This document shows, piece by piece, positions 9,389 through 59,801 of a stretch of 64,000 nucleotides of DNA (position 1 is its first letter; each line of letters starts with the position of its first letter). The stretch lies in the NCBI GenBank assembly GCA_965248435.1, contig OZ252100.1, positions 4,896,001 through 4,960,000 on the forward strand, in the 5' to 3' direction. The stretch comes from Candidatus Latescibacterota bacterium. Its GTDB lineage: Bacteria > Latescibacterota > UBA2968 > GCA-2709665. Under the pieces are notes generated by a model, which searched no databases, was not told where the DNA came from, and was given only the letters and a program-made list of their open reading frames with translations. A program made the position numbers and the translations under genes.

Positions 9389-10939
9389 ATGAATGCACAA
9401 GAAAAGGAGAGAGCGTTGGAGACCGGTTGGAACGTTCGAAGTTACGGTGCGAAAGGGGACAAGCAGGCCAACGATAAGAGCGCCATCCAACAGGCCGTCG
9501 ACGACTGCAATCAGGCCGGCGGGGGCGCAGTGGTGGTGCCTTCGGGAGATTACCTCACCGGGACGATTCGCCTCAAAGACCACGTGACGCTGCAGCTGGA
9601 AGCTGGCGCCACGCTGTGGGGCAGCACCGACCGGGCCGACTACGACGACGTGCCCCACCTTGCTGAGGCCATAAGGGGGTCTTCCGCGGTCCTTATCTAC
9701 GCCAAAGGCGCACAGAATGTGTCCATTCTCGGTCCCGGCTGCATCGACGGGCAGGGGGAGGCCTTCTGGGTGCGGAAGGAAAACGGGTGGCACAAGGCGG
9801 AGTGGCGTCCCGGACGCCTGATCTACTTTGAAGAGTGCCGGGACGTGCTGATGCGGGATTTCACGGCGGCCAACTCGCCCTCGTTCACGATTCACCCATT
9901 CCGGTGCGACAGGGTACTGATCTCGGGGGTGAAAATTCTGAACGATATTCTCGGGCCCAATACGGACGGGATCGATACGAACTGTTCGACGAACGTGCAC
10001 ATCTCCGACTGTCACATTATCGCTGGAGACGACTGCATCGTCATGAAGGCCACAGAGCCGTATGTGTGCGAGAACATCACAGTGACGAACTGCACGCTGG
10101 AGACGACGTCTTCGGGGCTGAAGCTGGGCACGGAAAGTTTCGGGAACATCCGTCACGTGACGTTCAGCAACTGCACGATTCGGAACACACATTTGGGGAT
10201 CGGGCTTCTTATGAAGGATGGGGGCACGATAGAGGCGGTGACCTTTTCCAACATCACGATCGAGACGAAGCCCAGCCCGAAAACGGGTGCCTCCGAGTGG
10301 CCGATTCTGATAGATCTGGAGCGGCGGGGTCCGGACTCGAGAACGGGGGCAATCCGGGACGTGAAGCTGAGCAATATCGTAATCTCGACCGGCGGGCGGT
10401 GCTTGGCACAGGGAATGAAATCGCAGCCGATCGAGCGACTGGCGATCGAGAATGTGACGGTGCGGGTGACCAGATTTCAAGACCTGAACCAGATTTCGAA
10501 ACACCGAGGCGGTCGGATTCGGTGGGACGACCCCGACGGCGGACAGCACGCGGCGGCGCCTGCGCACATGGTGTTCTCGAACGTGAAGGGTTTGAAGCTT
10601 CGGGACGTGGAGGTGGTGGTGGATGCCGAAGGTGAACTTCCGGAGCGGTCGGCGGTGTTTGCCGACAGGGTGGCAGGCATGAGGATCGAAGGATTCGGGG
10701 GACGTCAGAGCGTGCCGAAGGGCACCTCTCCAGCTCTGCACCTGCAAAATTGCCGGGACGTGCATATCACCGGCTCTCGGGCGGCTGCTGAAACGGGGAC
10801 GTTCTTACAGCTGGATGGAACGGAGACGGCGAACGTCTGTATGATGGGCAACAATCTGGCAGCTGTCGGACAGGCCGTAAGTCTGGGTGACGGCGTGTCA
10901 GAAGATACCCTTTTTGAGTCCGGCAACCGCAAAGCGTAG
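9389..10939 (+). CDS. Glycoside hydrolase family 28 (polygalacturonase-like) beta-helix protein
   Basis: YGAKGD, AIQQAVD, PNTDGID, GDDCI, LKLGTES. Confidence 0.88.
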   Translation: MNAQEKERALETGWNVRSYGAKGDKQANDKSAIQQAVDDCNQAGGGAVVVPSGDYLTGTIRLKDHVTLQLEAGATLWGSTDRADYDDVPHLAEAIRGSSAVLIYAKGAQNVSILGPGCIDGQGEAFWVRKENGWHKAEWRPGRLIYFEECRDVLMRDFTAANSPSFTIHPFRCDRVLISGVKILNDILGPNTDGIDTNCSTNVHISDCHIIAGDDCIVMKATEPYVCENITVTNCTLETTSSGLKLGTESFGNIRHVTFSNCTIRNTHLGIGLLMKDGGTIEAVTFSNITIETKPSPKTGASEWPILIDLERRGPDSRTGAIRDVKLSNIVISTGGRCLAQGMKSQPIERLAIENVTVRVTRFQDLNQISKHRGGRIRWDDPDGGQHAAAPAHMVFSNVKGLKLRDVEVVVDAEGELPERSAVFADRVAGMRIEGFGGRQSVPKGTSPALHLQNCRDVHITGSRAAAETGTFLQLDGTETANVCMMGNNLAAVGQAVSLGDGVSEDTLFESGNRKA

Positions 10940-13750: not shown

Positions 13751-14716
13751 ATGGATCTGACAACAGAGAAGCAGCTCGAGATGCTGCGCGCGATGCAGAC
13801 GATCCGCCGTTTCGAGGAGCGCGCGTCGGATGACTATCATTCCGGGGCCATCTACGGCGTTGTGCATTGCTACATCGGTGAGGAGGCCGTCGCCGTGGGG
13901 GTGTGTGCGGCACTGAACGATGACGACCAGATCATCAGCACGCACCGAGGCCACGGGCACTGCATCGCCAAGGGCGCCGATCTGAAGCGGATGATGGCCG
14001 AGCTCTACGGCAGACGGTCCGGATACTGCAAGGGCAAGGGGGGCTCGATGCATATCGCCGATTTCAGCATCGGCATGCTGGGGGCGAACGGCATCGTCGG
14101 TGGCGGCATCCCGATCGTGACCGGTGCCGGTCTGGCCGCACAGCTCGATGGCAAAGGGCGTGTCGCCGTCTCTTTCTTTGGAGACGGGGCCTCGAACGCG
14201 GGCCCGTTCCACGAGTCGATCAACATCGCCGCGGCCTGGAAGCTTCCGATGCTCTACGTCTGCGAGAACAACCTCTGGGCCGCCAGTACCGCGGCTGCGG
14301 ACACCCTGGCCCTTGGCGACGTGGCGGCGCGAGCCGCCGGTTATGGCATCCCGGGTGTGGTTGTGGATGGGAACGATGTGCTGGCGGTCTATGAAGCCGC
14401 CGCAGAGGCGGTCGGCCGGGCGCGGGCCGGTGAAGGCCCTACGCTCATCGAATGCAAGACCTATCGCTGGCGCAGGCATACGGAAAGGGCGAGCGCAGAG
14501 GATCTGCGCCCACGAGAAGAGGTCGAAGCATGGCTGCAGAAGGACCCGATCAAACGCCTTTCCACCGATCTGATGTCGCAGGGCGTTTTGAGCGAGGACG
14601 CCTGGAAAGAGATGGACACAGAGATCCTGGCTGCAATCGACACCGCGGTCAGGTATGCCCAGGACAGTCCGTTTCCCGACCCGGAAATGGCCGTCGAGGA
14701 TGTGTTCTCGGATTGA
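13751..14716 (+). CDS. 2-oxoacid/acetoin dehydrogenase E1 alpha subunit (AcoA-like)
   Basis: HCYIGEEA, STHRGHGH, GKGGSMH, GDGA...ENN, KTYRW. Confidence 0.93.
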   Translation: MDLTTEKQLEMLRAMQTIRRFEERASDDYHSGAIYGVVHCYIGEEAVAVGVCAALNDDDQIISTHRGHGHCIAKGADLKRMMAELYGRRSGYCKGKGGSMHIADFSIGMLGANGIVGGGIPIVTGAGLAAQLDGKGRVAVSFFGDGASNAGPFHESINIAAAWKLPMLYVCENNLWAASTAAADTLALGDVAARAAGYGIPGVVVDGNDVLAVYEAAAEAVGRARAGEGPTLIECKTYRWRRHTERASAEDLRPREEVEAWLQKDPIKRLSTDLMSQGVLSEDAWKEMDTEILAAIDTAVRYAQDSPFPDPEMAVEDVFSD

Positions 14717-14734
14717 TTAGGGGGGCGACGCGTC

Positions 14735-15691
14735 GTGCGTAGGATTTCATATGCAGAAGCCGGAATGGAAGCGCTTTTCGAGGAGATGAGGCGCGATCAG
14801 ACGACGCTGCACCTCTCGACCGATGCCCCTGCGGCGCTTGTCGACGAGTTCGGCACCGAGCGGGTGCGCGCCACGCCGATCGCCGAAGGCGCCTTCACCG
14901 GCATCGCCATTGGCGCAGCCGGGTCGGGCTATCGGCCGATCGTCAACTGGAGCATGGTGACGTTTTCCTTCGTTGCCATGGACCAGATCGTGAACCAGGC
15001 GTCCAAGATCCATTACATGTTCGGAGGCCAGGCCAAGTTCCCCATCACCTTTCGTACCTCCGTCGGCGGCGGAACGAAGCTTGCTGCGCAGCACTCCCAG
15101 TCCCCTTACTCGATGTTCATGAACCTGGCTGGGTTGAAGCTGGTGCTGCCCTCGACGCCCTACGACATGAAGGGACTGCTCAAATCGGCGATCCGCGACG
15201 ACAACCCCGTCATCTCGTTCGAGTCCAGCCGTCTTATGGGCTTTGAAGGCGAAGTGCCCGAGGAAGAGTTTACGCTACCGCTTGGCAAGGCCGACATCAA
15301 ACGCGAGGGGAGCGATGTGACGGTGGTGGCCCTGGCCTGGCTCGTGCACGAAGCGCTTGCTGCCGCTGAACTCCTCGAGCGAGAGGGCGTCTCCGTCGAG
15401 GTGGTCGATCCGCGCACCCTCGTCCCCCTGGATCAGGCCGCGATTCGGGCATCCGTGCAGAAGACGGGACGGCTGATCATTGCCGACGAAGCCGGCCCGA
15501 CCGCCGGTGCGTCGGCAGAGATTGCCGCTGTGGCCACCGAGGATGGGGAGACGTTCGGGAAGATGAAAGCGCCGGTGAAGCGCGTCTGCGCGCTCCACGT
15601 ACCGATCCCCTACAGCCCGCCGCTCGAAGACCACGTATTTCCGAACAGGGACAAGATCGCCGCGGCCGTGAGAGAAGTTGTGGCCAGGTAG
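14735..15691 (+). CDS. 2-oxoacid/acetoin dehydrogenase E1 beta subunit (AcoB-like)
   Basis: TPIAE, AMDQIVNQA, AAQHSQ, VVDPRTLVPLD. Confidence 0.93.
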   Translation: MRRISYAEAGMEALFEEMRRDQTTLHLSTDAPAALVDEFGTERVRATPIAEGAFTGIAIGAAGSGYRPIVNWSMVTFSFVAMDQIVNQASKIHYMFGGQAKFPITFRTSVGGGTKLAAQHSQSPYSMFMNLAGLKLVLPSTPYDMKGLLKSAIRDDNPVISFESSRLMGFEGEVPEEEFTLPLGKADIKREGSDVTVVALAWLVHEALAAAELLEREGVSVEVVDPRTLVPLDQAAIRASVQKTGRLIIADEAGPTAGASAEIAAVATEDGETFGKMKAPVKRVCALHVPIPYSPPLEDHVFPNRDKIAAAVREVVAR

Positions 15692-48914: not shown

Positions 48915-49122
48915 CTACTCAACGTAGTCAATGAGGTGATCGTAGCTTTGTGGGATCAGATGCCCGTAGAAGTCCTGAGTGATTGTAACGCTGGCGTGCC
49001 CAAGCCAAGCACTCACGATCTGGATACTCACCTTCCCCGAGGACAGAAGGTGGGCTGAAAACGTGTGACGAAGCATGTGCCAGTGTCCTTTCATCCCGCG
49101 CCGACGACACACGGCCTTGAAG
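48915..49122 (-). pseudogene. C-terminal fragment of a phage/ICE-type tyrosine integrase, truncated by an IS
   Basis: HMLRHTF...VSAWLGHAS.TIT..FYGH; ttggaaaggt repeated next to the stop. Confidence 0.8.
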
Positions 49123-49702
49123 TGAATCGCTTTCCGGAGGCTCGTTTAGTTGAGTCCAGCCAGCATTGGCCGGGCTTCCTGCTCGTGGTAGTGTAGCCGT
49201 TCGAGCTCGACGGGTGGGATATCCCCGATGGGCCCCAGAGTCGTCTGTTGTTGAACCAGTCTACCCACTCGAGTGTCGCATATTCAACCTGATCGAGGTT
49301 CCGCCAGGGCCCTCGTCGACGAAGTCCACAATCACTTCGGTCGGCGGTCGAGCTCCGCCTGTGCGAAATAGGCCGACGCCTTGCGAAGGATCTCGTTCGC
49401 CCGCCGCAACTCTCGGTTCTCGCGCTGCAGTTCTTTGAGTTGCGCCCGTTCGCTGCTTGTCACGCCGCCTCGACGTCCCGTGTTCACCTCGGTCCGACGT
49501 ACCCACTTCCGGAGCGTCTCAGCCGCGCAGCCAATTTTGCCCGCGATCGAATAGATGGCCTCCCACTGGGAGGCGTGTTCGTCAGTGTGCTCGAACACCA
49601 TCCGAACCGCCCGTTCTCGAACCTCTGGAGAATACCTCTTCACGTTTGTCATGACTCTATCCTCTCAAGAAATAGAGTCTCCGTCAAGTCCGGGGCGATT
49701 CA
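49123..49702 (-). mobile_element. Internally deleted IS3-family element (OrfA 49332-49652 intact, OrfB reduced to its ends)
   Basis: Ends TGAATCGC...GCGATTCA; OrfB VIVDFVDE joined directly to GPWRNLDQVEYATLEWVDWFNNRRL. Confidence 0.88.
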
Positions 49703-49734: not shown

Positions 49735-50624
49735 CTATTTTGACTCACCAAGATGCATCAACGGCAGAGGCATGGGGCTGTCACTGTTGATGAAATACAC
49801 CTTGGCTGCTGGATCTTTGGAGATGGCTTTAAGCGCTTCCAGCGCCTGGAGTTTGACGTAGTTAGGGTTCTTGCCGATGGCCGCGTTGATTTTCTCGATT
49901 TCGTAGGCCTGGACATCTGCCAGTACGCGGCGCTGGGCGGCCTGTTCTTCAGCTGCACCGCGTTCCGCCTTTGCTGCTGCTATTTTCTGTTGTTGCTCTG
50001 TGCGGAAACGCTCCAGTTCTGCCTTCTGCTTCTCAACTTCCTGTTCGCGCTCCTTTTTTGACTCAATCGCCTTTGTGATAAAGGGGGGTAGGGCAATATC
50101 GCGAAGGAGCACAGCCCCCACATCTATTCCCTCCGGACCCAGATAATCGCGCAGTCCTTCCAGCAGTGCAGTCTGCAAGGTGACCTGGGCTTGCTCAAGA
50201 AAGAAGTCCTCGGCGCGTTTGACCGCTTTGCCCTGTTCACGTATCAGGGAACGCAGCTTCGGGATGATATGCACTCTGACGACGTCTTCCGCGGTGCCGG
50301 TCTCCTTCAGGATGCGCGGGGCATCTTTGCGCATGAGACGATACTGCACGCTGACATCAATCTTGGTCTGTAACTGGTCCTGGCTGGGGACGCTTGCCCG
50401 CTCCAAATGGGTCTTCTGGCGTACGTCATACAGATGCCAGGCATAGAGCGGATTGACGGGAATATGCAACCCTGCCTCATAAGGCTTCGGCTTCACACTC
50501 CCGAACAGTGTCGCGACCGCTACATGCCCGCTGGAATGCTTTGGTAAAATTTGCTGCCAAAGAATAAGACAATGATCACTATCACGATTGTAACAATGAG
50601 AGACTTCGGGATCTGATCCATCAT
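49735..50624 (-). pseudogene. SPFH/prohibitin family protein with a -1 frameshift near 50528
   Basis: RBS aggagg, TM anchor ...SIPAG, then HVAVATLFG...DVSVQYR...LLRDI.LP in another frame. Confidence 0.8.
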
Positions 50625-50784
50625 TGTTTCCTCCTGAAAGGGTTAACGTGAATACCGACTCGAACCTTACCCAAAATACAAACTATCATATCAGGGTAGA
50701 ACCTGCAATGTAGGCAAACGCTGCCCGACCATCCACAAGTTCGATGACCTCTTCCAGGCAAGGCATCCGAAAGTGTTGGTTGCT

Positions 50785-50938
50785 GTAGTGGGACCGTGGA
50801 GAACTACGGGTAGAATTATAAAATCACGCCCACACAGCTTGCTGGGCTATAGGCCGCCGGCGCCTGAAACGGTCTCAGAACCGCTAGTCGCAACCGCATC
50901 CTAACTCTGGACGTGGATACATAGGTGGGGGCAGGTCA
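50785..50938 (+). mobile_element. IS3-family right-end remnant
   Basis: Encodes RPHSLLGYRPPAPE and ends ...ggggcaggtca, typical of an IS3 OrfB end and IRR. Confidence 0.7.
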
Positions 50939-51152
50939 CCCACCAGTTCCGAATTCTTGAGCGATTCAAATTGGCTGACTGGGCGAGCACCCACCTTTTC
51001 CCTGAAGGAAGCAACTTTTGGAGGCTCGTTCGACTCCGACAGAGCACCCATTGTCCCCGGGTCCATACAAAGATAATCAATACCACACAGAGACAAAACC
51101 TGTTCCACACCCTCCGGGCAAGTGATCCCCTCGTTTGGGAACGACGACGGGC

Positions 51153-51208
51153 GCTCAACATGTCAAATACACGCTGTGCCCTCTGTGGTTCTGCAGAATA
51201 TGTTGTGT
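51153..51208 (-). repeat. Possible degenerate attC-like site after the cupin gene
   Basis: Minus strand ACACAACat...atGTTGAGC directly after the stop; inner pairing is weak. Confidence 0.35.
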
Positions 51209-51209
51209 C

Positions 51210-51872
51210 TTACTCCTCGAAGGGAAAGTAGTCGAGGACGTCGTACTCCCACACATTGGTGGGAAAGATTACGACCAGTTCGGCCAAGTCCTCGCCCAAG
51301 TTCTTGAATGAGTGGGGGACCATAGGAGGAATATTGACGATATAGGGGGCTTCCAATGTGAACACCGAATCGCCCAGCGCGTAAAGGATGGTCCCCTCCA
51401 ACAGGACGTGCGCTTCTTCCCCTACGTGCGTGTGCATCGGAGGTGCACCTCCGGGGGCCGTATAGGTGATGCCCACGGTCAGGTTCTGATAGCCGTGCCG
51501 CTGCCCTTCCATGACGTGCACATATTCGCCCGGCCCTGGGTTGATGACGACGAGTTCTTTCTTCTCAAGAGCAAACTCGCCCACCAATGTCATAGCCGGG
51601 GACTTGAAGTCACCGGGGATCCTGCGGGTTTCGATAATGCCGTGGGGGTGATGTTGTGCATGCAACTGCTTTCTCGCTTCATCAATCGAGCTGATTAGTT
51701 CTCCGTGTGTGATCGTCTGTCCTAGCTTGGCGTCCTCGGGTGAATACGTAACAGTCGGTTCCGGTGGCAGCGTGGAGGATTTATCTTTCGCGTCGGACGG
51801 CTCTAAGTAAGCCAAGCCAACGATGCCTATGAGGATGAAGCTAACGACAATACGTGGTGTATACCTGTGCAT
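51210..51872 (-). CDS. Exported cupin-domain protein (cassette gene)
   Basis: N-terminal hydrophobic segment; PPMHTH..EE.H, PP.VPHSF.N; RBS ggaggg. Confidence 0.8.
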   Translation of the reverse strand: MHRYTPRIVVSFILIGIVGLAYLEPSDAKDKSSTLPPEPTVTYSPEDAKLGQTITHGELISSIDEARKQLHAQHHPHGIIETRRIPGDFKSPAMTLVGEFALEKKELVVINPGPGEYVHVMEGQRHGYQNLTVGITYTAPGGAPPMHTHVGEEAHVLLEGTILYALGDSVFTLEAPYIVNIPPMVPHSFKNLGEDLAELVVIFPTNVWEYDVLDYFPFEE

Positions 51873-51923
51873 GGTACCCTCCCTTTAGGGTATGGTGAAA
51901 GCACGGTCCTGGACCGCAATGGC

Positions 51924-52009
51924 AGGTAACGTTCTCGGCACCCACGAACCCGCGCAGCGGGTTGGGCGGAAGCCCGAATGGGCTGAAGCCGTGGGTGCTC
52001 GTGTTAGCG
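51924..52009 (-). repeat. attC-like cassette site (non-canonical)
   Basis: aac..gcacccacg-[two hairpins]-cgtgggtgc..gtt. Confidence 0.8.
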
Positions 52010-52041
52010 GATGTCGCCGACGGAGCTGGCCTGGGAGGCTA

Positions 52042-52947
52042 TTAGAGTTTCGGCATAGGCCATTCGGCGATTGGCCTTCCCGACCAGGTTGACCGACTGA
52101 AGAATCGTCCACCCGCACGGTTGATGGAGCCGAACCACGCCTGGATCGCAATTCCCCAGAAATGCTCAAAGGATCTATCCTTCAGATTCAGATCAGCACG
52201 GTCGTAATGCGACAGGACCTCATCTACGAACACCTCGCCGTACACCCAGAAACCATAGAAGTCCTTGGCCGGGTCAGTGATTTCGATGTCGCCCCAGTCT
52301 ATGATCCCGGTCAGCTTTCCTGAAGAAGGATCGTGGTAGATGTGCTTGTACCATAGATCATTGTGAGCCAGCACTGGTACGAATGCGTGATCAATGCTCT
52401 CACTTCTTTCGATCCAGGAACCGAAGACATCCCGAACCTCTGGCTCAAGTTCGTCGGCCCGATCTGCGAAGACCTTCTTGGCCTCCGACCGGTAAAACAG
52501 GGACCTGTCGCCATCCACCACACCAACACTCCGAGCCTCCGAGACTGGATAACTGTGAAGTTCGTTGAGGAAGACGCCAAGCCTGCTTGCCGCTTCTGCC
52601 CTCCTGAATCTTGGTAGCCTGGAGAATCGCCAAGGTGAGAGCCGCGTTCCTTGAATTGCCTTATATCCAGCGAAATCCGACGCGCTGGGAATAAAGGTGT
52701 AATCCGGAACTGGGATGCTATTAATCTCACGCCTGATGGCGCTGAGCACCGTCCGCTCCCGCGGAAGGCTCAGCCCTGTGTCCGCTACATCATTCAGAAA
52801 ACGAAAGGCAATCCCGTTGTCTAGCAGGATCATTACATGATCAGGGTATTTGTGGGTCTGAGCTCTCCGGTATTTTGACCACCTGAGTTTGGGGAACGAG
52901 TCCTTGATCCTCTGCAGATAGTAGTTTGTATCGTAGGGAGTCGTCAC
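52042..52947 (-). CDS. APH-like phosphotransferase (cassette gene)
   Basis: HNDLWYKHI, GIIDWGD, DPAKDF; GTG after ggag. Confidence 0.85.
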   Translation of the reverse strand: MTTPYDTNYYLQRIKDSFPKLRWSKYRRAQTHKYPDHVMILLDNGIAFRFLNDVADTGLSLPRERTVLSAIRREINSIPVPDYTFIPSASDFAGYKAIQGTRLSPWRFSRLPRFRRAEAASRLGVFLNELHSYPVSEARSVGVVDGDRSLFYRSEAKKVFADRADELEPEVRDVFGSWIERSESIDHAFVPVLAHNDLWYKHIYHDPSSGKLTGIIDWGDIEITDPAKDFYGFWVYGEVFVDEVLSHYDRADLNLKDRSFEHFWGIAIQAWFGSINRAGGRFFSRSTWSGRPIAEWPMPKL

Positions 52948-52994
52948 GAGATCTCCAGGATCAAAGTGGACCCTAACACAAAGGCGGCGATTTC

Positions 52995-53079
52995 CGCTAA
53001 CGTTCTCGGCACCCACGAACCCGCCGCAGGGGGTTGGGCGAAGGCCGGATGGCCTGAGCCGTGCACGGTCGTGTTAGAG
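52995..53079 (-). repeat. attC-like cassette site (non-canonical)
   Basis: Shares taacgttctcggcacccacgaacccgc with the 51924 site; ends tcgtgttag. Confidence 0.8.
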
Positions 53080-53125
53080 GCCGTGCGGCCCGGGGCAGGA
53101 AGGGGTTCTCAAGACCTGATCAAGA

Positions 53126-54574
53126 TTAAACCGACTCCGGACCAATCTCTATGGGCAAGCTAATCGTTACTGTCGTACCTTTTCCTACCTCGCTCTCCAT
53201 CTTGATCCTCCCCTTGTGATCCTGGATAATCCTGTAGTCCGTAGACAATCCTAAACCCATTTTCACCCGAAGATCGGTGGCCTGAAAATCAACATCGAAG
53301 ATGCGTTCTAACTGCTCCGGTGGAATTCCCACGCCCGTGTCGCTGATCCGGACACAGACCTTGTCGTCCTCCTCAAAGGTGCTGACTCTTATTTCCCCAG
53401 TTTCCTCGATAGCCTGGAGCGCGTTCTTGAGCAGGTGCATGAAGACCTGGTTCAGTTGTCCGGGAGAACAGTAGATCGGCGGGATGTTCCCGTATTTCTT
53501 GACCACGGTGATGTTTTCGCCTATCCGGTTTTGTAGCAGCGTCAGGGCGCTGTCGATCCCCGCGTGAAGGTCTACCACCTGGAACTCGGCTTCGTCCAGT
53601 CGTGCGAAATTTCGCAGACTGCCCACAATGCTGCTCAACCGTTCGGCACCGCTTGCCATCACCCGGTTGGCATCGGCTATTGCCTTGAACACCGATTGAA
53701 TGGTCCGATTATCTTTATACTCTCCGGGAAAGGTCATCTCCAGCGTTTGTTTCAGTTTACCTATAGCCCGTACCTGAGTATCGTGCATACTCGTAATAGC
53801 GCCAAGAGGCGTATTCATCTCGTGAGCCACACCGGCTATCAGACTACCCAGAGAGGCCATTTTCTCCTGCATGATAAGCTGACTCTGTGTCTCTTTGAGC
53901 TGATGCAGGGCATCTTCCAGGGCTCGGTTCTGTTCTTCCAGATACTGGAAATCGAGGGTTCGGAGATACGCCAGCGACAGCGCGTCGGTCCATTCCTCTA
54001 TTTTGATCAAGTGTTCTGGATCGGTTCCCCGGTGGCGAATCCCGATCCAACCGTACTCAAACGGCACGTTGGTAATAACCCATCCTTCACTCCCAAAAAA
54101 CGGCAGTTGTCGGTCGAAGCCCATCAGCTCGTGAAAAGGCTGCATTTCCGCTTTGTCCTCCTCCGAACTCCGCGCAATAGACCAGACCTTGCCCTCGCGC
54201 CACTGACCCAGATCCTCCTCCCAATCAGCCGTAATGGGGACTTCCAATGCCGAAACGGTGGTTGTTTCGTCGATCTCCTTGAGTTCGGGAGAGGTCCACG
54301 AGATGCCATATTGCCGGGGATTTTCCAGGGCGGCGTACCACAGAATGCGGCCTTTGTCCTCGTCGACGAAGAAAAAGCCACACCCTGGTGCCTCTATATC
54401 CAGCCGCGAAAGCTCCTTGAACATCACCAGGATCACCTGGAGAAGGTCCTCCCTGGAACGCATGGACAGCACTTCGACCCGTATGCGTTCGATTGTTTTC
54501 TCCTGGGCTCGTTGTTGCCTAAGTTCGGCTAGTTCAATCCGGAGTTGCTCTTTGGACATCTCCATGTCTCTCAT
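53126..54574 (-). CDS. Orphan sensor histidine kinase with a GAF-like N-terminus (cassette gene)
   Basis: EKMASLG..AGVAHEMNTP, QVF..LL.NA, DTGVGI, GLGL, G.GT. Confidence 0.92.
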   Translation of the reverse strand: MRDMEMSKEQLRIELAELRQQRAQEKTIERIRVEVLSMRSREDLLQVILVMFKELSRLDIEAPGCGFFFVDEDKGRILWYAALENPRQYGISWTSPELKEIDETTTVSALEVPITADWEEDLGQWREGKVWSIARSSEEDKAEMQPFHELMGFDRQLPFFGSEGWVITNVPFEYGWIGIRHRGTDPEHLIKIEEWTDALSLAYLRTLDFQYLEEQNRALEDALHQLKETQSQLIMQEKMASLGSLIAGVAHEMNTPLGAITSMHDTQVRAIGKLKQTLEMTFPGEYKDNRTIQSVFKAIADANRVMASGAERLSSIVGSLRNFARLDEAEFQVVDLHAGIDSALTLLQNRIGENITVVKKYGNIPPIYCSPGQLNQVFMHLLKNALQAIEETGEIRVSTFEEDDKVCVRISDTGVGIPPEQLERIFDVDFQATDLRVKMGLGLSTDYRIIQDHKGRIKMESEVGKGTTVTISLPIEIGPESV

Positions 54575-54604
54575 GCTAAACAACCTTGTTTTGGGCCGGA
54601 TGGC

Positions 54605-54692
54605 CTATAACGTTCCCGGCACCCACGAACCTGGCGAAGCCAGGTTGGGCGGAAGCCCGAATGGGCTGGAGCCGTGGGTGCTCGTGTTAACT
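54605..54692 (-). repeat. attC-like cassette site (non-canonical)
   Basis: Near copy of the 51924 site with a compensatory inner hairpin aacctggc/gccaggtt. Confidence 0.82.
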
Positions 54693-54713
54693 GCAGTTGC
54701 GCAGACCGCTTTG

Positions 54714-55634
54714 TCAGATCTTCGCGATAATGGAATCTAAGTAATCGTCGAATCGACAAAACAGGACTTCCTGACCTGGGTCTTTTATGCCGTATTCAGT
54801 CCAAGGAGGATAAAATCCTGGCTTCGGAATCGCCCAATCCAGAATAGAATCTATCTCCCAGAATGAGTGATACAGGTAATGTGGAGCAGCGACCTTGTGG
54901 TATTTCTCTCGGAAACTGCCTGCTATTTCGGGGCCGAACATCGTGGCAAGATTAATCTGACAATGAGCTACGTCCACGTTTGCGGGTCCCAGACAAGCGC
55001 CAACCCAATCGACGATCCCGGTCAGCTTTCCAGATACCCATAGGATGTTAACTGGATGGTAGTCGCGGTGGAGAAACACCTCGTCATAGGGAGGCGATTC
55101 TTCGAGTCTAATGTTGATTGCCTTCTCCCAAAGTTCAGATCGTTTCGACCAAGGTGGTACACAAAGTGTCTCGACTTCGGTATAGCTCTGGTAGTGCCAT
55201 CTTACACCATAAACCGCGATACTATGAATAGTCGCCAAGGTCTCCGCTAGTTGGTCGAGCCAATGGTCCAAATTGGCCGGCTTTATGTTCACAGTTCCAT
55301 CCAAACAGCTCATTAGAAGAGCGGGGTATCCGAAAACCGAAGTGTCTGCACTGTAATCGAGCAGATGAGGCGTTGGAAGGTCGGCAGAACTCAGCAATCG
55401 AAGCGCAGCCGCCTCCCGCACGATTGGATCTGGCTCCCTACCAAGCCGTTCCTCATCCACATAGAGACGTAATACATACCTTCTAGATTCACCTGCGACA
55501 TCTGCTTCCAGCAAGAAAACGGGTGAAGCGGGTCCGCAGATCAGTCTTTTGCTACTGGTCAATTTCGCGCTAGCGCCAATTGCTGAACTGATCCAGTCAG
55601 TAGCCGCACTATTGAGAATGAGTTCCGAACTCAC
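54714..55634 (-). CDS. APH-like phosphotransferase (cassette gene)
   Basis: REAAAL, HRDYHPVNIL, GIVDW, G.A.VD.AHC; ORF open to 55676. Confidence 0.87.
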   Translation of the reverse strand: MSSELILNSAATDWISSAIGASAKLTSSKRLICGPASPVFLLEADVAGESRRYVLRLYVDEERLGREPDPIVREAAALRLLSSADLPTPHLLDYSADTSVFGYPALLMSCLDGTVNIKPANLDHWLDQLAETLATIHSIAVYGVRWHYQSYTEVETLCVPPWSKRSELWEKAINIRLEESPPYDEVFLHRDYHPVNILWVSGKLTGIVDWVGACLGPANVDVAHCQINLATMFGPEIAGSFREKYHKVAAPHYLYHSFWEIDSILDWAIPKPGFYPPWTEYGIKDPGQEVLFCRFDDYLDSIIAKI

Positions 55635-55680
55635 AGCGACTCCAGAATCAAATAAGAAGGGGTTAGGGCTGCGCAATTGC

Positions 55681-55761
55681 AGTTAACGGTCTAGGCACTT
55701 GCGAACCCCGGAGGGGTTTGCCGAGGGCCGTCAGGCCCGAGCCGCAAGTGCCTTGTTAACT
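55681..55761 (-). repeat. attC-like cassette site (non-canonical)
   Basis: aac-N6-ggcacttgcg-[aacccc/ggggtt, gggcc/ggccc]-cgcaagtgcc-N2-gtt. Confidence 0.8.
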
Positions 55762-55778
55762 GCTGTTGCGCCCGGGTG

Positions 55779-56642
55779 TCAATAGAGCCTCTTCACCTCT
55801 TGGAGTCGAGTCAGCACATGTCTCTCGTAGGCCGTTTTCAGTCGCAATGAATCCCACGGTTTCCCCCGTCTCTTGATAGAGTCCACGACTACCGAGCCAA
55901 AACCGAATGCCATGTAGTAGGGGAGATCTGCGGCGTCTACGCCGAAGAACCTGAGATCTCTGAGCCGAGAAAATAGCCGAGACGCAGGCCAAATAGGATT
56001 GTGGAGCAGGACTCCCACTAGAATCTCCTTTGTGCCGAAAAAGGCTTGCTCAAAATCAATAAATCTGTGGATGGCCCCGTTTTTCAGGAACAGGTTCTCT
56101 GGATTCCAGTCCAGCTTGATCAGCAGGTCTTCTGAAATCTCAACCCTGGCCACCGAGTCGCAGATGTCCTGAAAAATCGGACCGCAATCTCCGACATCCT
56201 TTGCCAGACGAGATAGGTTGTCAATCAAGGTCCCGAGATTTTCCTCTGCCCCAATCCCTTCGTAGTATTCGCCTTTGAGTTCGAGAGTTGGCTCTGGCCC
56301 CCTGAACAGACTTATGAGTTCATCGACGTAGTTATCGGTCAACTCGAGTAGCTCATCAGAGGGAAGTGGGCTGATGTCGCTCATCCGATCTCCCTCTGCT
56401 CGTTCGATAACGATGTAGTCATTGACACTCAGATCAATGAGTTTGGGGATTAGCTTTGACTCTTTGTAATGAGACAAGAATCCTACTTCACGCCTGAATT
56501 TGCCTGCTCTTTCCCCGTTTCCGCTGTAAGTCTTCTTCACAGACTTTCCATCGGAGAGGAACTCGATTTGGCTCTTCCTGCCTTGAGGCGATTTATGCAC
56601 GGCAGATTCTCGCTTCTTTAGAGTCTTTCCCAATGGGCGCAA
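55779..56642 (-). CDS. Divergent APH/kinase-like protein (cassette gene)
   Basis: VKK, REV, PKLI, DWNPENL..IDFE kinase-fold motifs; start could be GTG 56600. Confidence 0.7.
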   Translation of the reverse strand: MRPLGKTLKKRESAVHKSPQGRKSQIEFLSDGKSVKKTYSGNGERAGKFRREVGFLSHYKESKLIPKLIDLSVNDYIVIERAEGDRMSDISPLPSDELLELTDNYVDELISLFRGPEPTLELKGEYYEGIGAEENLGTLIDNLSRLAKDVGDCGPIFQDICDSVARVEISEDLLIKLDWNPENLFLKNGAIHRFIDFEQAFFGTKEILVGVLLHNPIWPASRLFSRLRDLRFFGVDAADLPYYMAFGFGSVVVDSIKRRGKPWDSLRLKTAYERHVLTRLQEVKRLY

Positions 56643-56646
56643 TTGC

Positions 56647-56793
56647 AGTTAACGTTCTTCAGGTTTACGACGCCTGCTGTCCCGAAGGGCTGGCGCGGCA
56701 TTTGCGCTTCTCACCAAATGACGTGACAGAAGCAGGTGTGCCCCAAGGGCCAAGCGGAACGAAGTGGAGCGCAGCGTAAACCTGGTGTTAACA
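56647..56793 (-). repeat. Long attC-like cassette site (non-canonical)
   Basis: aac-N6-caggtttacg...cgtaaacctg-N2-gtt with a large branched interior. Confidence 0.75.
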
Positions 56794-56927
56794 GATGGCA
56801 CGCGCCGGGGTGGTTGTGGGGGCGGGCCAGGACGGCCCGCGTAGGGGTGCTTTTTCTGATTTTGACTCCAAGTTTTTAAATAAAGCGTGCTGTCATCAAC
56901 ATCGTTCTCTTTATGTTTTATCTTCCA

Positions 56928-56984
56928 ATTTAACGTGCCGATAAGCGGCGGCGATTAGCCGTCCGCTCCACTGGCTAGTTCGCC
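56928..56984 (-). repeat. Canonical-type short attC site
   Basis: Minus strand GGCGAAC-TAGCC-AGTGGAGC-GGACGGCTAATCGCCGCC-GCTTATC-GGCAC-GTTAAAT. Confidence 0.78.
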
Positions 56985-57037
56985 TCGACCTTCGTCCACC
57001 TGAAGAGCTGTCGACAGCTGACCCGTGTGCTCCGCCT

Positions 57038-58096
57038 TCACCACTGCACGCGGAGGCGCGTCCAACGGATGCCGCAGACGTCGTCCTCTACGCACCAATG
57101 AACGGCAAGCACGATGTTGTCCTCAAGCAAAAGGCCCATCGGATAGCCGAACTGAATGAGCCCGATCTGCTCCTGACTGCTGACGTCCTCGGTAAGCTCA
57201 AGCCTTGACCGACCGTCGAACAGGGTGCCTTCGAACTCAAGCGACCAGCACGCGCCCGACACTCGGACCAGGCACATCTGTACGCTCTGGTCACCGAAGC
57301 GTCTGTTGTACAGCACGAGATACCGATCGTCCCCGAGCCAGATCGGGGTCATTGTCTGACCCTGGATACCGGTAGGGTACGGTCCTTCCCAACTGCGGCC
57401 GCCGTCGGTCGATACGCTAAACGCGTTCCTCAGGTCAGTGTCTCCCGCGAAGTCCTGGACCCACGCAATGGCCAGCATTTGTCCCGGTTCCGTCTCGATC
57501 AGCTTCTGCTCCAGATACCCGATGCCGGTGCCGGGGTCCTGGAAGACAGTATACATGCTCGGCCAGGTCGCCCCCTGGTCGGACGATTCGTGCAGCACCA
57601 CGCGCTCCCCGTAACGCCCGTCGTATAATGTCGCGGCCGGAGCGAGCCAGCGTCCGTCAGCGGTGACGACAATCGGGTTCGAGATCTCATAGGGCCCCGC
57701 AATCTGAAAGGGAATAACTTCGGGAAAGGACCACGTATGGCCGCCGTCCGTCGAGCGGCACAGCACGGGTTCACAGACGCGACCCCGTCCGCCGTCCGCG
57801 ATGCTCAGCTTCTGGTCGCGCTGGCCGTACGCGAGGATCGTTCCGTCCGCGGTGCGGCTGAGGCGCAGATGGTTGGTCTTCACCGGGCTCTCGTCCCGCT
57901 TGAGGACGACGCCCAGGTACGACCAGATGAAGCCCCCATCGGCAGAACGGGCGCAGTGCGTGTCGCCTTGCGCGTGAGCTCCGCCGCCGCGACTGAACCC
58001 GCAGACGATGTCGCCGCTATCTAACCGTACTAAGGTGGGAAACGCTGAGTCGCCGCGGTCGATGTGGCCGGTACCGAGAATCTCGATAGTGGACAT
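57038..58096 (-). CDS. Asp-box (BNR) sialidase-like beta-propeller protein (nested cassette gene)
   Basis: SADGG.IW, STDGGHTW, SSDQGATW, STDGGRSW; RBS ggagg. Confidence 0.85.
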   Translation of the reverse strand: MSTIEILGTGHIDRGDSAFPTLVRLDSGDIVCGFSRGGGAHAQGDTHCARSADGGFIWSYLGVVLKRDESPVKTNHLRLSRTADGTILAYGQRDQKLSIADGGRGRVCEPVLCRSTDGGHTWSFPEVIPFQIAGPYEISNPIVVTADGRWLAPAATLYDGRYGERVVLHESSDQGATWPSMYTVFQDPGTGIGYLEQKLIETEPGQMLAIAWVQDFAGDTDLRNAFSVSTDGGRSWEGPYPTGIQGQTMTPIWLGDDRYLVLYNRRFGDQSVQMCLVRVSGACWSLEFEGTLFDGRSRLELTEDVSSQEQIGLIQFGYPMGLLLEDNIVLAVHWCVEDDVCGIRWTRLRVQW

Positions 58097-58209
58097 GGAA
58101 TCCTCCAGGCATCTGCGAACTATTTCCTATACGGAAAAATCGCCGAAGAAAGCTATCAATGGTTTTCTTGGCGGCCAGGACGGCCGCCGGTTGTGGTTTT
58201 GAATTTGAT

Positions 58210-58330
58210 GCGTGCTTTCTGTTAACTTCTGCATTCGCGCCCCATCGGCGCAAATACCACCCGATAGGGCAAATAATGCGCACTGCGCAGATCCTGCCAA
58301 TAATATAGATAATGCGCCTTATTTCGTGAA
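58210..58330 (-). other. Candidate attI-like primary recombination site
   Basis: Minus-strand GTTAACAG core with no closing arm; direct repeats ataatgcgc x2 and gcaaata x2 between the core and the integrase stop. Confidence 0.5.
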
Positions 58331-58352
58331 TGCTATTTATAGGAGACACCAA

Positions 58353-58601
58353 TTAACCGGAACCTGTCTCCCTCTCCATCGGGTCGTCCAGGGGATTCCT
58401 AATCTGGGCGAGGTCCCTCCGGGTCATGTGAGTATGGATTCCCGTCGTTTTTGAACTTTTGTGGCTCAGGAGCTCCTGGATGTATCGGAGGTCCGTGCCC
58501 CTTTCAAGAAGATGGGTCGCAAATGAGTGTCTGAGGGTGTGTACGGACACCGGCTTCTCAATACCGGCCCGTTTGTAAGCTTGGTCGAAGATTTTCTGCA
58601 C
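58353..58601 (-). pseudogene. Tyrosine recombinase C-terminal fragment, catalytically dead
   Basis: [38 protein letters not shown]; catalytic Tyr replaced by His; no N-terminus. Confidence 0.85.
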
Positions 58602-58955
58602 GGATTGGATCCATAAAAAAATACCGAATGCCTAAGCTCCCAGAGCCCGTGACATTCGGCTTATTTGTTGCCGGTCGAACGCCACAGGCTGCACTCATAG
58701 GCACCTACAAATTCCACGACCGCTACGGACTCCGATTCGGGTTCCGAAGTCACTACACGATGCGACCGGGGCCTTGCTCCTGAACCCGGATGGACGCATG
58801 TGGACAACTCAGAACTTGCAGACGGCGGCAGATTTTGTAACTTTGGAGCGAAGCCGCGCACGGAGGAAGAAGAGATGACGAAGGGGAAGAGGGCGCGGAT
58901 CGCGGTCAAAAATAGATAGAAAACGGAATAATCCCTTACTTAGAGGAGAACTGAC

Positions 58956-59801
58956 GTGGTCACTCGCTCAGACCCTCGACTCAGCCGCTTCGATCCGCTG
59001 CCTCAGATCCACTACTTCGATGATTTCGACGTGGGTCTGCAGGGATGGACAGCGCTGATCGGGAACTACGAGGAGACGCTGGATTCCGTGCTGCCCGGAT
59101 ACCGGGACTTCGGACCTCCCATGCTCAGCAATGCCACGATGTGGGACACCGGATCGGCCGGTGCCTTCGACGGCACATATGCCATGAAGCTGGTTACGAG
59201 GCCGAAGTCGGGGTGCATGACGACCGCGGTAAAACGTGTGACCTGGCGCCATCAAGGCCCGATTCAGCTGGAGGCCTATGTGACGTTCAAACCGGAGGCG
59301 TCGGAATTGCGGCTTTCCGAGCTGGACGTGAGGTCGTTCGGCGTTTTGTTCGACCTGCACGACGCCACGCGGCGGGTGATGCCGCACCTGCGTTATCTGA
59401 ATGCGCTGGACGGACAGCCGGTCGCTCGCTGGCAGTATAAGAAGGAGCTGGAGACCGCCGAGGAGATCGGGACGTCGGGGAAGACCCGATCCCATCATCA
59501 CCTGGCGCCGGAGGGCTGGCTGGACGTGCCGGGCGAGCCCCAGCCCCTCTGTTACAACGAGATCGCGACGAAGCAGAACTGGCACTATATAAAGGTAGGG
59601 TTCGATCTGGCGTCGATGACCTACCTGAGTTTCCAGTGCAATGACCGGGAGTATGATGTCTCCGAGATCGCCCCGATGTCTATGCCTGCGTGGTCGAATC
59701 TCTGGTGTATGCTGAATGTAGTCTTCTTTTTGGAGACGGATCTGGACAAGAGGGCGTTTCTGTATGTGGATTCGGTGTTGGTTTCGGGGGAGACGGACTG
59801 A
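58956..59801 (+). CDS. Conserved hypothetical protein (DUF6772-like, recalled from memory)
   Basis: RBS gaggag; clean ORF coupled to the next gene. Confidence 0.7.
   Translation: MVTRSDPRLSRFDPLPQIHYFDDFDVGLQGWTALIGNYEETLDSVLPGYRDFGPPMLSNATMWDTGSAGAFDGTYAMKLVTRPKSGCMTTAVKRVTWRHQGPIQLEAYVTFKPEASELRLSELDVRSFGVLFDLHDATRRVMPHLRYLNALDGQPVARWQYKKELETAEEIGTSGKTRSHHHLAPEGWLDVPGEPQPLCYNEIATKQNWHYIKVGFDLASMTYLSFQCNDREYDVSEIAPMSMPAWSNLWCMLNVVFFLETDLDKRAFLYVDSVLVSGETD

Follow-up and report, generated by a model that had tools for sequence, protein, structure and literature searches.

Integrons are defined, searched for and counted by an insertion specific to their integrase, IntI, and structural work has indicated that this insertion is needed to read the folded attC site; the question raised by the locus described here is whether gene cassettes can also be gathered by a tyrosine recombinase in which that insertion is missing. 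The locus lies in a stretch of 64,000 nucleotides (nt), termed the window throughout, from the genome of a Candidatus Latescibacterota bacterium (C1:4896001-4960000; 5.67 Mb in two contigs with a completeness rating of 97.5%), and reads on the minus strand from the 3' remnant of a tyrosine recombinase gene through a spacer into six genes coding in turn for a BNR/Asp-box protein, a 287-amino-acid protein, an APH-family phosphotransferase, a histidine kinase, a second APH-family phosphotransferase and a cupin-domain protein, all co-oriented with the remnant (Table 1). The reading favoured here, and considered probable, is that the locus is the decayed platform of an integron-like gene-capture system with a non-IntI integrase. 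At the level of sequence comparison, the evidence demonstrates that the array consists of true cassettes joined by integron-type crossover and that the gene at its head is a dead member of an IntI-sister group, in a genome without IntI.

Five of the sites in the window exhibited the full attC layout, in which arms of the form ..TAAC and GTTA.. enclose an L''/L' stem and a variable loop with branches, and their bottom strands folded into structures closed by AAC/GTT. A covariance model built from four of them (R1) returned those four at 85-98 bits and, with filters off, nothing above 13.4 bits in the remainder of the 64 kb, while a second model (R2), built from 84 sites of the source genome and four relatives, added site A to these. 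In the alignment of the 84 sites, 93.3% of cells were paired as compared with 78.3% for shuffles and at most 39.3% when the partners were slid, both sides had changed in 18 of 25 pairs, including seven of the eight in the L-box helix, and the TAAC/GTTA box was nearly invariant: at 75-199 nt, the sites are imperfect palindromes of the R''-L''...L'-R' type with a branched loop, closed by AAC/GTT and conserved in structure over sequence, as is characteristic of attC. The first-pass annotation of this DNA had listed six hairpin sites, at coordinates that correspond to the last bases of GTTnnnn heptamers; five are indeed strong attC-type sites, but the one at 56928 is weak, was matched by neither model, folds only modestly better than its shuffles, and coincides with a break in homology to a foreign contig (see below). 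It is possibly a rearranged attC. With five sites in 4.9 kb, as recognised by R1 and R2, and no IntI nearby, the cluster also corresponds to a cluster of attC sites without an integron integrase (CALIN, at least two attC sites within 4 kb), as the term is used in Cury 2016. A scan of 50500-59000 against Rfam at E ≤ 1 yielded three chance-level rows, none over threshold; one of these, a match described as 'AAC_AAD_leader / attI site', was rejected at 22 bits against a gathering score of 56.

In integrons, crossover at G|TT means that a cassette carries at its 5' end the terminal bases of the site that closes it. For 62 cassettes, each lying between two consecutive sites separated by less than 4 kb, the 13 nt that follow GTTA at the start were accordingly compared with the 13 nt preceding TAAC in the cassette's own 3' site, with a cut-off of at least 9 of 13 complementary positions. 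Own-start/own-end pairing reached this cut-off in 33 of the 62, as compared with 2 of 85 same-site arm pairs and 2.8% at random (Mann-Whitney p 1.2e-7), and the 29 failures may include cassettes hiding an undetected short site. The four testable cassettes of the window paired at 11, 12, 10 and 11 of 13, and the cassettes recovered from other phyla behaved similarly (17 of 28, against 1 of 61 controls). By eye, the first cassette begins with bases that pair with the 5' arm of site A, and by this end-pairing site A closes the unit starting at 58225. Because cassette starts pair with the arm of their own 3' site, as is to be expected of former circles, the sequence shows that cassettes were inserted and exchanged by recombination at G|TT.

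The first cassette was also found in foreign DNA. The block 56968-58226, which carries the BNR cassette, is present with 30 changed letters and flanks unlike those of the window on a 3,086-nt contig of run X1, and again in run X2, both being seawater metagenome runs of other, different studies. Homology to the X1 contig breaks upstream at 58226, the G of the head GTT; in both runs it breaks downstream at 56968, inside the weak hairpin, and the loose end beyond that point reads like the 3' half of the site consensus. The runs were compared as contigs only, and gaps in X1/X2 coverage are uninformative. Two further runs, X5 and X6, probably represent the source sample and provide no independent support; their cassette-skipping joints (51991 to 52998, 53030 to 54604) were set aside as evidence of excision because their sides measure only 23-30 nt and fall within near-identical sites. 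Homologues of the six window genes were dispersed singly among different relatives and never found together. As a separate observation on X5 and X6, their short-read contigs end at each attC-type site in 51900-56860, where there is also a 2-8 fold increase in k-mer depth; in short-read metagenome bins, arrays of this kind will usually be broken up.

Across the source genome, R1 located 74 sites at E ≤ 1 and R2 68 sites at E ≤ 1e-5, in about nine clusters. The interval between the remnant's stop codon and the first crossover GTT, given by the first-pass annotation as about 130 bp, measures 127 nt in the same orientation, and this spacer recurs at seven other places in the genome to give eight attI-like heads. 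At six of the eight a unit of 2,480 bp is inserted exactly after the G of the GTT, while two homologous heads are devoid of it. The heads at 3.85 and 1.45 Mb retain the final ~8 recombinase codons ahead of the spacer, and that at 4.65 Mb has a recombinase pseudogene upstream. Folding of the spacer at three loci, on both strands, gave z values of -1.1 to -2.9. The description of the heads as attI-like reflects a conserved spacer whose terminal GTT is both the starting point of first cassettes and the insertion point of the six 2,480-bp units. A gene for a 344-amino-acid protein with DUF1016_N and SNase domains (C1:3848648-3849682, plus strand, and a copy near 1.45 Mb) abuts the two heads with ~8 codons. 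IntI itself was sought with the TIGR02249 profile, to which none of 23 matches in the source genome reached the cut-off (the best, at 104 bits, being a half-protein), and by tblastn with the true IntI of relative G004, which returned only Xer-type and insertion-less recombinases.

The remnant covers only the C-terminal third of a tyrosine recombinase (TIGR02249 profile positions 242-313), aligns a His with the catalytic Tyr (IHTH vs IYTH in the others), and is not preceded by any recombinase coding sequence. Its identity is 75% to residues 292-368 of P0008 (a 368-amino-acid homologue found by means of that of relative G003) and 60% to IS91-linked paralogues, as against 50% to the G004 IntI. 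The additional domain that distinguishes IntI, of ~35 residues near patch III, was absent from the intact homologues, which in the alignment are without ~41 residues present in the true IntI of G004; the remnant is too short to span this region. A member of the clade scored 195.5 bits with TIGR02249 (cut-off 265) in two stretches that skip profile positions 177-236, and the make-up of a SAM-like plus a catalytic domain (PF13495 and PF00589) is that of a simple recombinase. A quick tree of 26 proteins, with narrow sampling of IntI, supported IntI at 99% (7 rows) and the insertion-less clade at 82% (including one long-branch row), and separated both from the genome's two Xer proteins at 100%. 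On this alignment and tree the remnant belongs to an IntI-sister clade without the IntI insertion, in agreement with its initial description as a recombinase of non-IntI appearance. Long forms within the clade carry ~90 extra N-terminal residues, and 19 of 32 such N-terminal domains matched Pfam HARP (PF07443) with E values of 0.1 or less (the lowest 5.8e-6), none of them attaining the gathering score (18.1 bits vs a cut-off of 25 for the first member). An AlphaFold model of the domain (pLDDT 81.9) gave only weak Foldseek matches, led by those to the N-terminal domain of XPB helicases at E 0.024 and to the HARP domain of SMARCAL1 at E 0.21.

The link between this clade and the arrays was then sought in 41 genomes, comprising the source genome and 40 relatives. 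Sites were present in 28 of the 41 and IntI in two, which themselves held 4 and 0 sites. In relatives G003, G018 and G038, near-full-length open homologues with no accompanying IS91 transposase lead from their stop codon through a homologous spacer to a GTT and a co-oriented array, and the first cassette of G003 follows the end-pairing rule; these three match P0008 from residue ~105, ~108 and ~151 only, and are thus without the HARP region. Recombinase remnants adjoin arrays in G002, G012 and G020.

The same geometry extends well beyond these genomes. With P0008 as the query, 80 loci were fetched from a set in which each species is represented by one genome; the titles of the records include Latescibacterota, Dehalococcoidia, many Bacillota (Paenibacillus and Desulfitobacterium among them), Nitrospirae, Bacteroidota, Thermotogae, Atribacteria and archaea. 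R2 found 62 sites in 30 of these loci, 55 of them downstream of and co-oriented with the recombinase (18% expected from the bases searched); six of the other seven lie downstream on the opposite strand, all in one Dehalococcoidia locus, and one lies upstream. Locus counts are fairer than site counts, since hits within one array are not independent, and on that basis a downstream co-oriented site was present in 29 of the 30 loci with any match (29/80 overall) and in 25 of the 40 loci having at least 1,500 nt downstream. One Paenibacillus locus displays eight sites, 0.6-2.3 kb apart, between small genes that include a toxin-antitoxin-like pair. Neither the IntI insertion segment nor an IS91 transposase was encoded in any of the 80 loci. 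Sites downstream of intact homologues of the recombinase and a gene order that varies between strains had been proposed at the outset as checks; the former were found, with intact or near-full-length homologues, in the three relatives and 29 loci just described, the sites are clustered rather than spread genome-wide, and the window genes are non-syntenic in relatives. Modelling the sites anew and searching this genome and its relatives, likewise proposed, gave the 68 R2 sites and the 28 site-bearing genomes.

In five of the Bacillota loci (L099, L046, L061, L067 and L070), bases just beyond the R boxes are also conserved, with GTTAnnnGAAAT at cassette starts and ..CTTCnnnTAAC or ..CATCnnnTAAC ahead of the sites, a pattern that suggests, in these loci, a sequence-specific R box longer than that of classical attC.

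These data point to the insertion-less clade as the arrays' integrase. The ancestral unit, as pictured from intact copies elsewhere, would have comprised an IntI-sister tyrosine recombinase without the IntI insertion, bearing a HARP-like N-terminus in its long form; directly after its stop codon, an attI-like site of ~130-150 nt ending in GTT; and then co-oriented cassettes, each closed by a folded attC-type site (R'' ..TAAC, L''/L' stem, loop, R' GTTA..). The HARP-like domain may help to read the folded site, and may replace the inserted helix of IntI in recognising it in single-stranded form. Since the platform gene of the window is dead (82 codons, Tyr to His), its array would now be static unless served in trans, a role in which the six intact short forms encoded by the 2,480-bp units could act. 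A broader proposal, towards which the evidence leans slightly, is that of a second integron-integrase lineage, sister to IntI, with no inserted helix and a HARP-like domain reading folded DNA, that heads true arrays in many bacterial and archaeal phyla including Bacillota, with cassette-shaped IS91 elements riding on these and on canonical platforms and a short-form integrase able to serve decayed arrays in trans.

The 2,480-bp unit was characterised in its own right. Against the copy at 3.85 Mb, five pairwise matches showed 97.7-99.6% identity, and the 1.45-Mb copy 94.4% over a longer match. Each unit encodes a short-form recombinase of 283 amino acids (219 bits to XerA_Arch, whose cut-off is 220, and 195.5 bits to TIGR02249, over two stretches) and a transposase assigned to IS91 (NF033538 449.9 bits against a cut-off of 125; PF04986, PF14319), and the recombinases of the six units are the only intact clade paralogues in the source genome. 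Identity between copies stops at GTT on both ends: on one side the unit opens with TT directly behind the G of the head, and on the other its R''/12-bp-stem hairpin gives way to G|TTA, where the next cassette begins. In the alignment the first bases of the unit pair with its own 3' arm. These boundaries and this arm pairing, as seen in the alignment, are what is meant here by cassette anatomy; the attC-shaped end was not matched by R2 and, despite its perfect 12-bp stem, did not fold better than its shuffles (z about -1). Five of the six units are followed within ~5 kb by one or more attC-type sites. The unit looks like an IS91 element travelling as an integron cassette. Known passengers that target attC are the IS1111-attC elements and the group IIC-attC introns; like them, the unit is multi-copy and was found only at integron-type recombination sites, but it has cassette anatomy and sits at an attI-like site rather than inside attC.

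Several results weigh against the proposed integrase role. The case for it draws on position, orientation and co-occurrence only, and most platform recombinases in the 41 genomes are fragments or pseudogenes. Relatives G010 and G021, with at least 10 sites each, contained no clade member above Xer level. In the same-genus relative G001 a short form is divergent from its array and the GTT lies on the upstream side of the gene, an arrangement known from classical integrons, and because of this both orientations occur within one genus; the six opposite-strand sites mentioned above belong to locus L039. Since R1 and R2 were built from this lineage's own sites, the site counts are biased towards this site type. 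The HARP assignment is weak, falling below the Pfam cut-off and meeting only weak fold matches. Finally, in G004 a homologous unit (55% and 61% amino-acid identity for its two proteins) sits at a GTT ~180 nt after the stop codon of a co-oriented true IntI (464.5 bits), and a second copy follows a truncated IntI; because the first occupies the attI of a true IntI, members of the clade can be passengers at a canonical integron. Neither of the two true-IntI loci of G004 gave an R1 or R2 site, and our own crude scan of them gave one candidate hairpin.

This last finding leads to the principal alternative, namely that the arrays are ordinary ones left by a canonical IntI since lost, as in a CALIN, and that the insertion-less recombinases are mobile-element passengers whose adjacency reflects targeting of attI or attC. 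The order IntI, attI and recombinase-plus-IS91 unit in G004 is what such targeting would produce, as is the location of all six units of the source genome at attI-like GTTs, given the mobility of an IS91 unit, and recombinases of the clade occur in IS91 and IS3 elements according to the Smyshlyaev 2019 preprint. Nonetheless, 39 of the 41 genomes are without IntI although 28 have sites, the two with IntI hold 4 and 0 sites of this type, neither the insertion segment nor an IS91 transposase was encoded in any of the 80 loci, and transposase-free recombinase genes abut spacer and first cassette in one fixed geometry across several genera and phyla. A passenger gene of the long form should, moreover, have an upstream cassette boundary of its own; searches at six loci for a GTT with a partner arm gave scattered matches at three and none at the other three, and thus no support. 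Loss of a canonical IntI is accordingly regarded as fairly unlikely, and the decayed non-IntI platform is retained as the preferred reading.

Much less credible is the possibility that the modules are moved by host XerC/XerD at dif-like sites, with the adjoining recombinase irrelevant. Modules of this kind, known as pdif modules from Acinetobacter plasmids, are flanked by short duplex dif-like sites consisting of two arms and a 6-bp centre. The genome does encode two Xer-type recombinases, and the array recombinase is itself Xer-like in domain make-up; however, the sites are not 28-bp dif-like duplexes but branched palindromes of 75-199 nt with strong covariation, the G|TT crossover is conserved and accompanied by integron-style pairing of cassette ends, and the association with one specific recombinase is strongly directional. 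A further alternative, in which the hairpins are REP-like elements or terminators that sit immobile between fixed genes and resemble an array only superficially, accords with G+C-rich palindromes located at gene 3' ends but can be dismissed almost entirely in view of the pairing of cassette start with own 3' site that spans each gene, the copy of the first cassette in foreign surroundings with its break at GTT, the 2,480-bp unit present at six heads and absent from two homologous ones, the confinement of sites to about nine clusters rather than genome-wide scatter, and the non-syntenic gene content of relatives.

The system is a variant of integrons, and its co-oriented layout is not in itself new. 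The first-pass annotation had regarded that layout as unusual; the genes are indeed co-oriented here, but Cury 2016 and the Ghaly 2022 preprint already record the arrangement, in integrons of reverse orientation and in those of archaea, and the latter source adds that the additional domain is present in archaeal IntIs, with attI immediately downstream of intI. Such integrons share with the present arrays the order of integrase, insertion site just downstream and co-oriented cassettes, the R''-L''...L'-R' structure with AAC/GTT, the G|TT crossover that leaves chimeric sites, and a content of unrelated, mostly promoterless genes including toxin-antitoxin pairs. They differ in that the recombinase described here is without the IntI-defining insertion and has a long form with an N-terminal HARP-like domain, in that the site sequence is unusually conserved across phyla, with ..TTCG.. 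and ..GAACGTTA arms, and in that the hosts include Bacillota; according to the IntegronFinder 2.0 paper, Firmicutes (Bacillota) account for one complete integron and a few CALIN. The earlier suggestion of a cassette-capture system parallel to, or deeply diverged from, integrons is supported by these comparisons as regards the system, but its sites have ordinary attC architecture.

As in a CALIN, the window has an attC-type cluster with no IntI nearby or in the genome; unlike a CALIN, the cluster is headed by a non-IntI recombinase remnant and an attI-like site, and elsewhere clusters are headed by a near-full-length or intact gene. Cury 2016 examined non-IntI recombinases adjoining attC sites and judged them not to be IntI. 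In the Smyshlyaev 2019 preprint and 2021 paper, IS91 and IS3 recombinases are placed next to IntI with the insertion missing, and the clade described here resembles those 'Integron-like' simple tyrosine recombinases in being closest to IntI, in having no insertion and in the IS91 linkage of its short form; it differs in its connection with attC arrays, an attI-like site and a HARP-like domain, to none of which the available text of Smyshlyaev gives a link. A search of the full-text literature, with subscription journals largely outside it, returned no paper tying the insertion-less clade or the HARP domain to attC arrays. The present analysis adds a Latescibacterota genome with eight heads, a cassette-shaped IS91 unit, and a cassette copy in foreign context that breaks at GTT.

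Were the proposal of a second lineage correct, surveys would undercount gene-capture platforms and misfile them as orphan attC clusters, and the idea that integrons are nearly absent from Bacillota and other phyla would have to be reconsidered. Comparing the two solutions would also offer a direct test of how recognition of single-stranded sites evolved from a Xer-like ancestor, and a cassette-shaped IS91 element would represent a new way for a transposon to exploit an integron platform. Within the source genome, the locus, with its dead integrase, is one of some nine static collections of accessory genes (kinases, phosphotransferases and a BNR protein).

Table 1. Positions of the array features in the window, of the 2,480-bp units on contig C1 of the source genome, and of related features in two relatives
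Feature	Position	Strand	Remarks
Tyrosine recombinase 3' remnant, 82 codons	58353..58601	-	PF00589 E 4e-17
attI-like spacer, crossover GTT at 58226-58224	58224..58352	-	Homologous heads elsewhere in genome
BNR/Asp-box repeat protein, first cassette gene	57038..58096	-	PF13088 BNR_2 E 2.7e-12
Weak short AAC...GTT hairpin	56928..56985	-	Matched by neither R1 nor R2; fold z -2.2 to -2.3
attC-type site A, 147 nt, long variable loop	56647..56793	-	R2 25.6 bits, E 3.5e-4
Cassette gene, 287 amino acids	55779..56642	-	No Pfam/NCBIfam family match
attC-type site B	55681..55761	-	R1 85.4 bits; own-start/own-end pairing 11/13
APH-family phosphotransferase cassette gene, 320 amino acids	54714..55676	-	PF01636 E 4.8e-31
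attC-type site C	54605..54692	-	R1 94.4 bits; pairing own 12/13 vs adjacent arm 5/13
Sensor histidine kinase cassette gene, 485 amino acids	53126..54583	-	HATPase_c E 3.7e-22, HisKA; NF038348 E 2.1e-58 (below cut-off)
attC-type site D	52995..53079	-	R1 87.6 bits; pairing own 10/13 vs adjacent 4/13
Second APH-family phosphotransferase cassette gene	52042..52947	-	PF01636 E 1.4e-13
attC-type site E, last of array	51924..52009	-	R1 97.6 bits; pairing own 11/13 vs adjacent 6/13
Cupin-domain gene beyond last site	51210..51872	-	PF07883 Cupin_2 E 2.1e-14
2,480-bp unit	C1 3849863-3852342	+	Recombinase + IS91 transposase
2,480-bp unit	C1 4651295-4653774	+	Recombinase + IS91 transposase
2,480-bp unit	C1 5171410-5173889	+	Recombinase + IS91 transposase
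2,480-bp unit	C1 4841933-4844412	-	Recombinase + IS91 transposase
2,480-bp unit	C1 2070469-2072948	-	Recombinase + IS91 transposase
2,480-bp unit	C1 1447157-1449636	-	Recombinase + IS91 transposase
Homologous unit in relative G004	L019:4699-7229		At attI of true IntI
Locus L021 of relative G001 (G001:C1:1708001-1728000)	9770-10100 and 14456-15580		Divergent short form; second head duplicated with the gene's 5' part only

Gene identities were assigned by Pfam and NCBIfam profile searches of the window proteins, and open reading frame positions together with these family matches bear out the initial description of six unrelated genes, all on the minus strand. The individual names then proposed also hold for the Asp-box protein, two phosphotransferases, the histidine kinase and the cupin; by contrast, the third supposed kinase-like protein, the 287-amino-acid product, gave no Pfam or NCBIfam match and no BLASTP similarity to the adjoining APH-family protein, the sole basis for that label being a D..N / DFE-type motif spotted by eye. 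The open reading frame listed for the second APH-family gene extends to 53016, inside site D, and a GTG at 52947 is the likelier start. Neither R1 nor R2 found a match in the window below 51924, leaving the cupin gene without a site on its 3' side; it is either the last cassette, its site having been lost, or the first flanking gene.

At 58170-58188 and 56822-56840 on the minus strand lie two 19-nt G+C hairpins that are nearly identical and share the loop GTCCT, each beside a CCACAACC motif, the one near the start of the first cassette and the other ahead of site A. Some 2 kb past the distal end of the array, the minus strand carries a second, unrelated C-terminal fragment of a tyrosine recombinase (48915-49112), a generic one with 40% identity over 35 residues to P0008 that was not assigned to the clade, and, on the same distal side, an IS3-type OrfA-like open reading frame with an HTH_Tnp_1 domain (49332-49652); both are further mobile-element debris.

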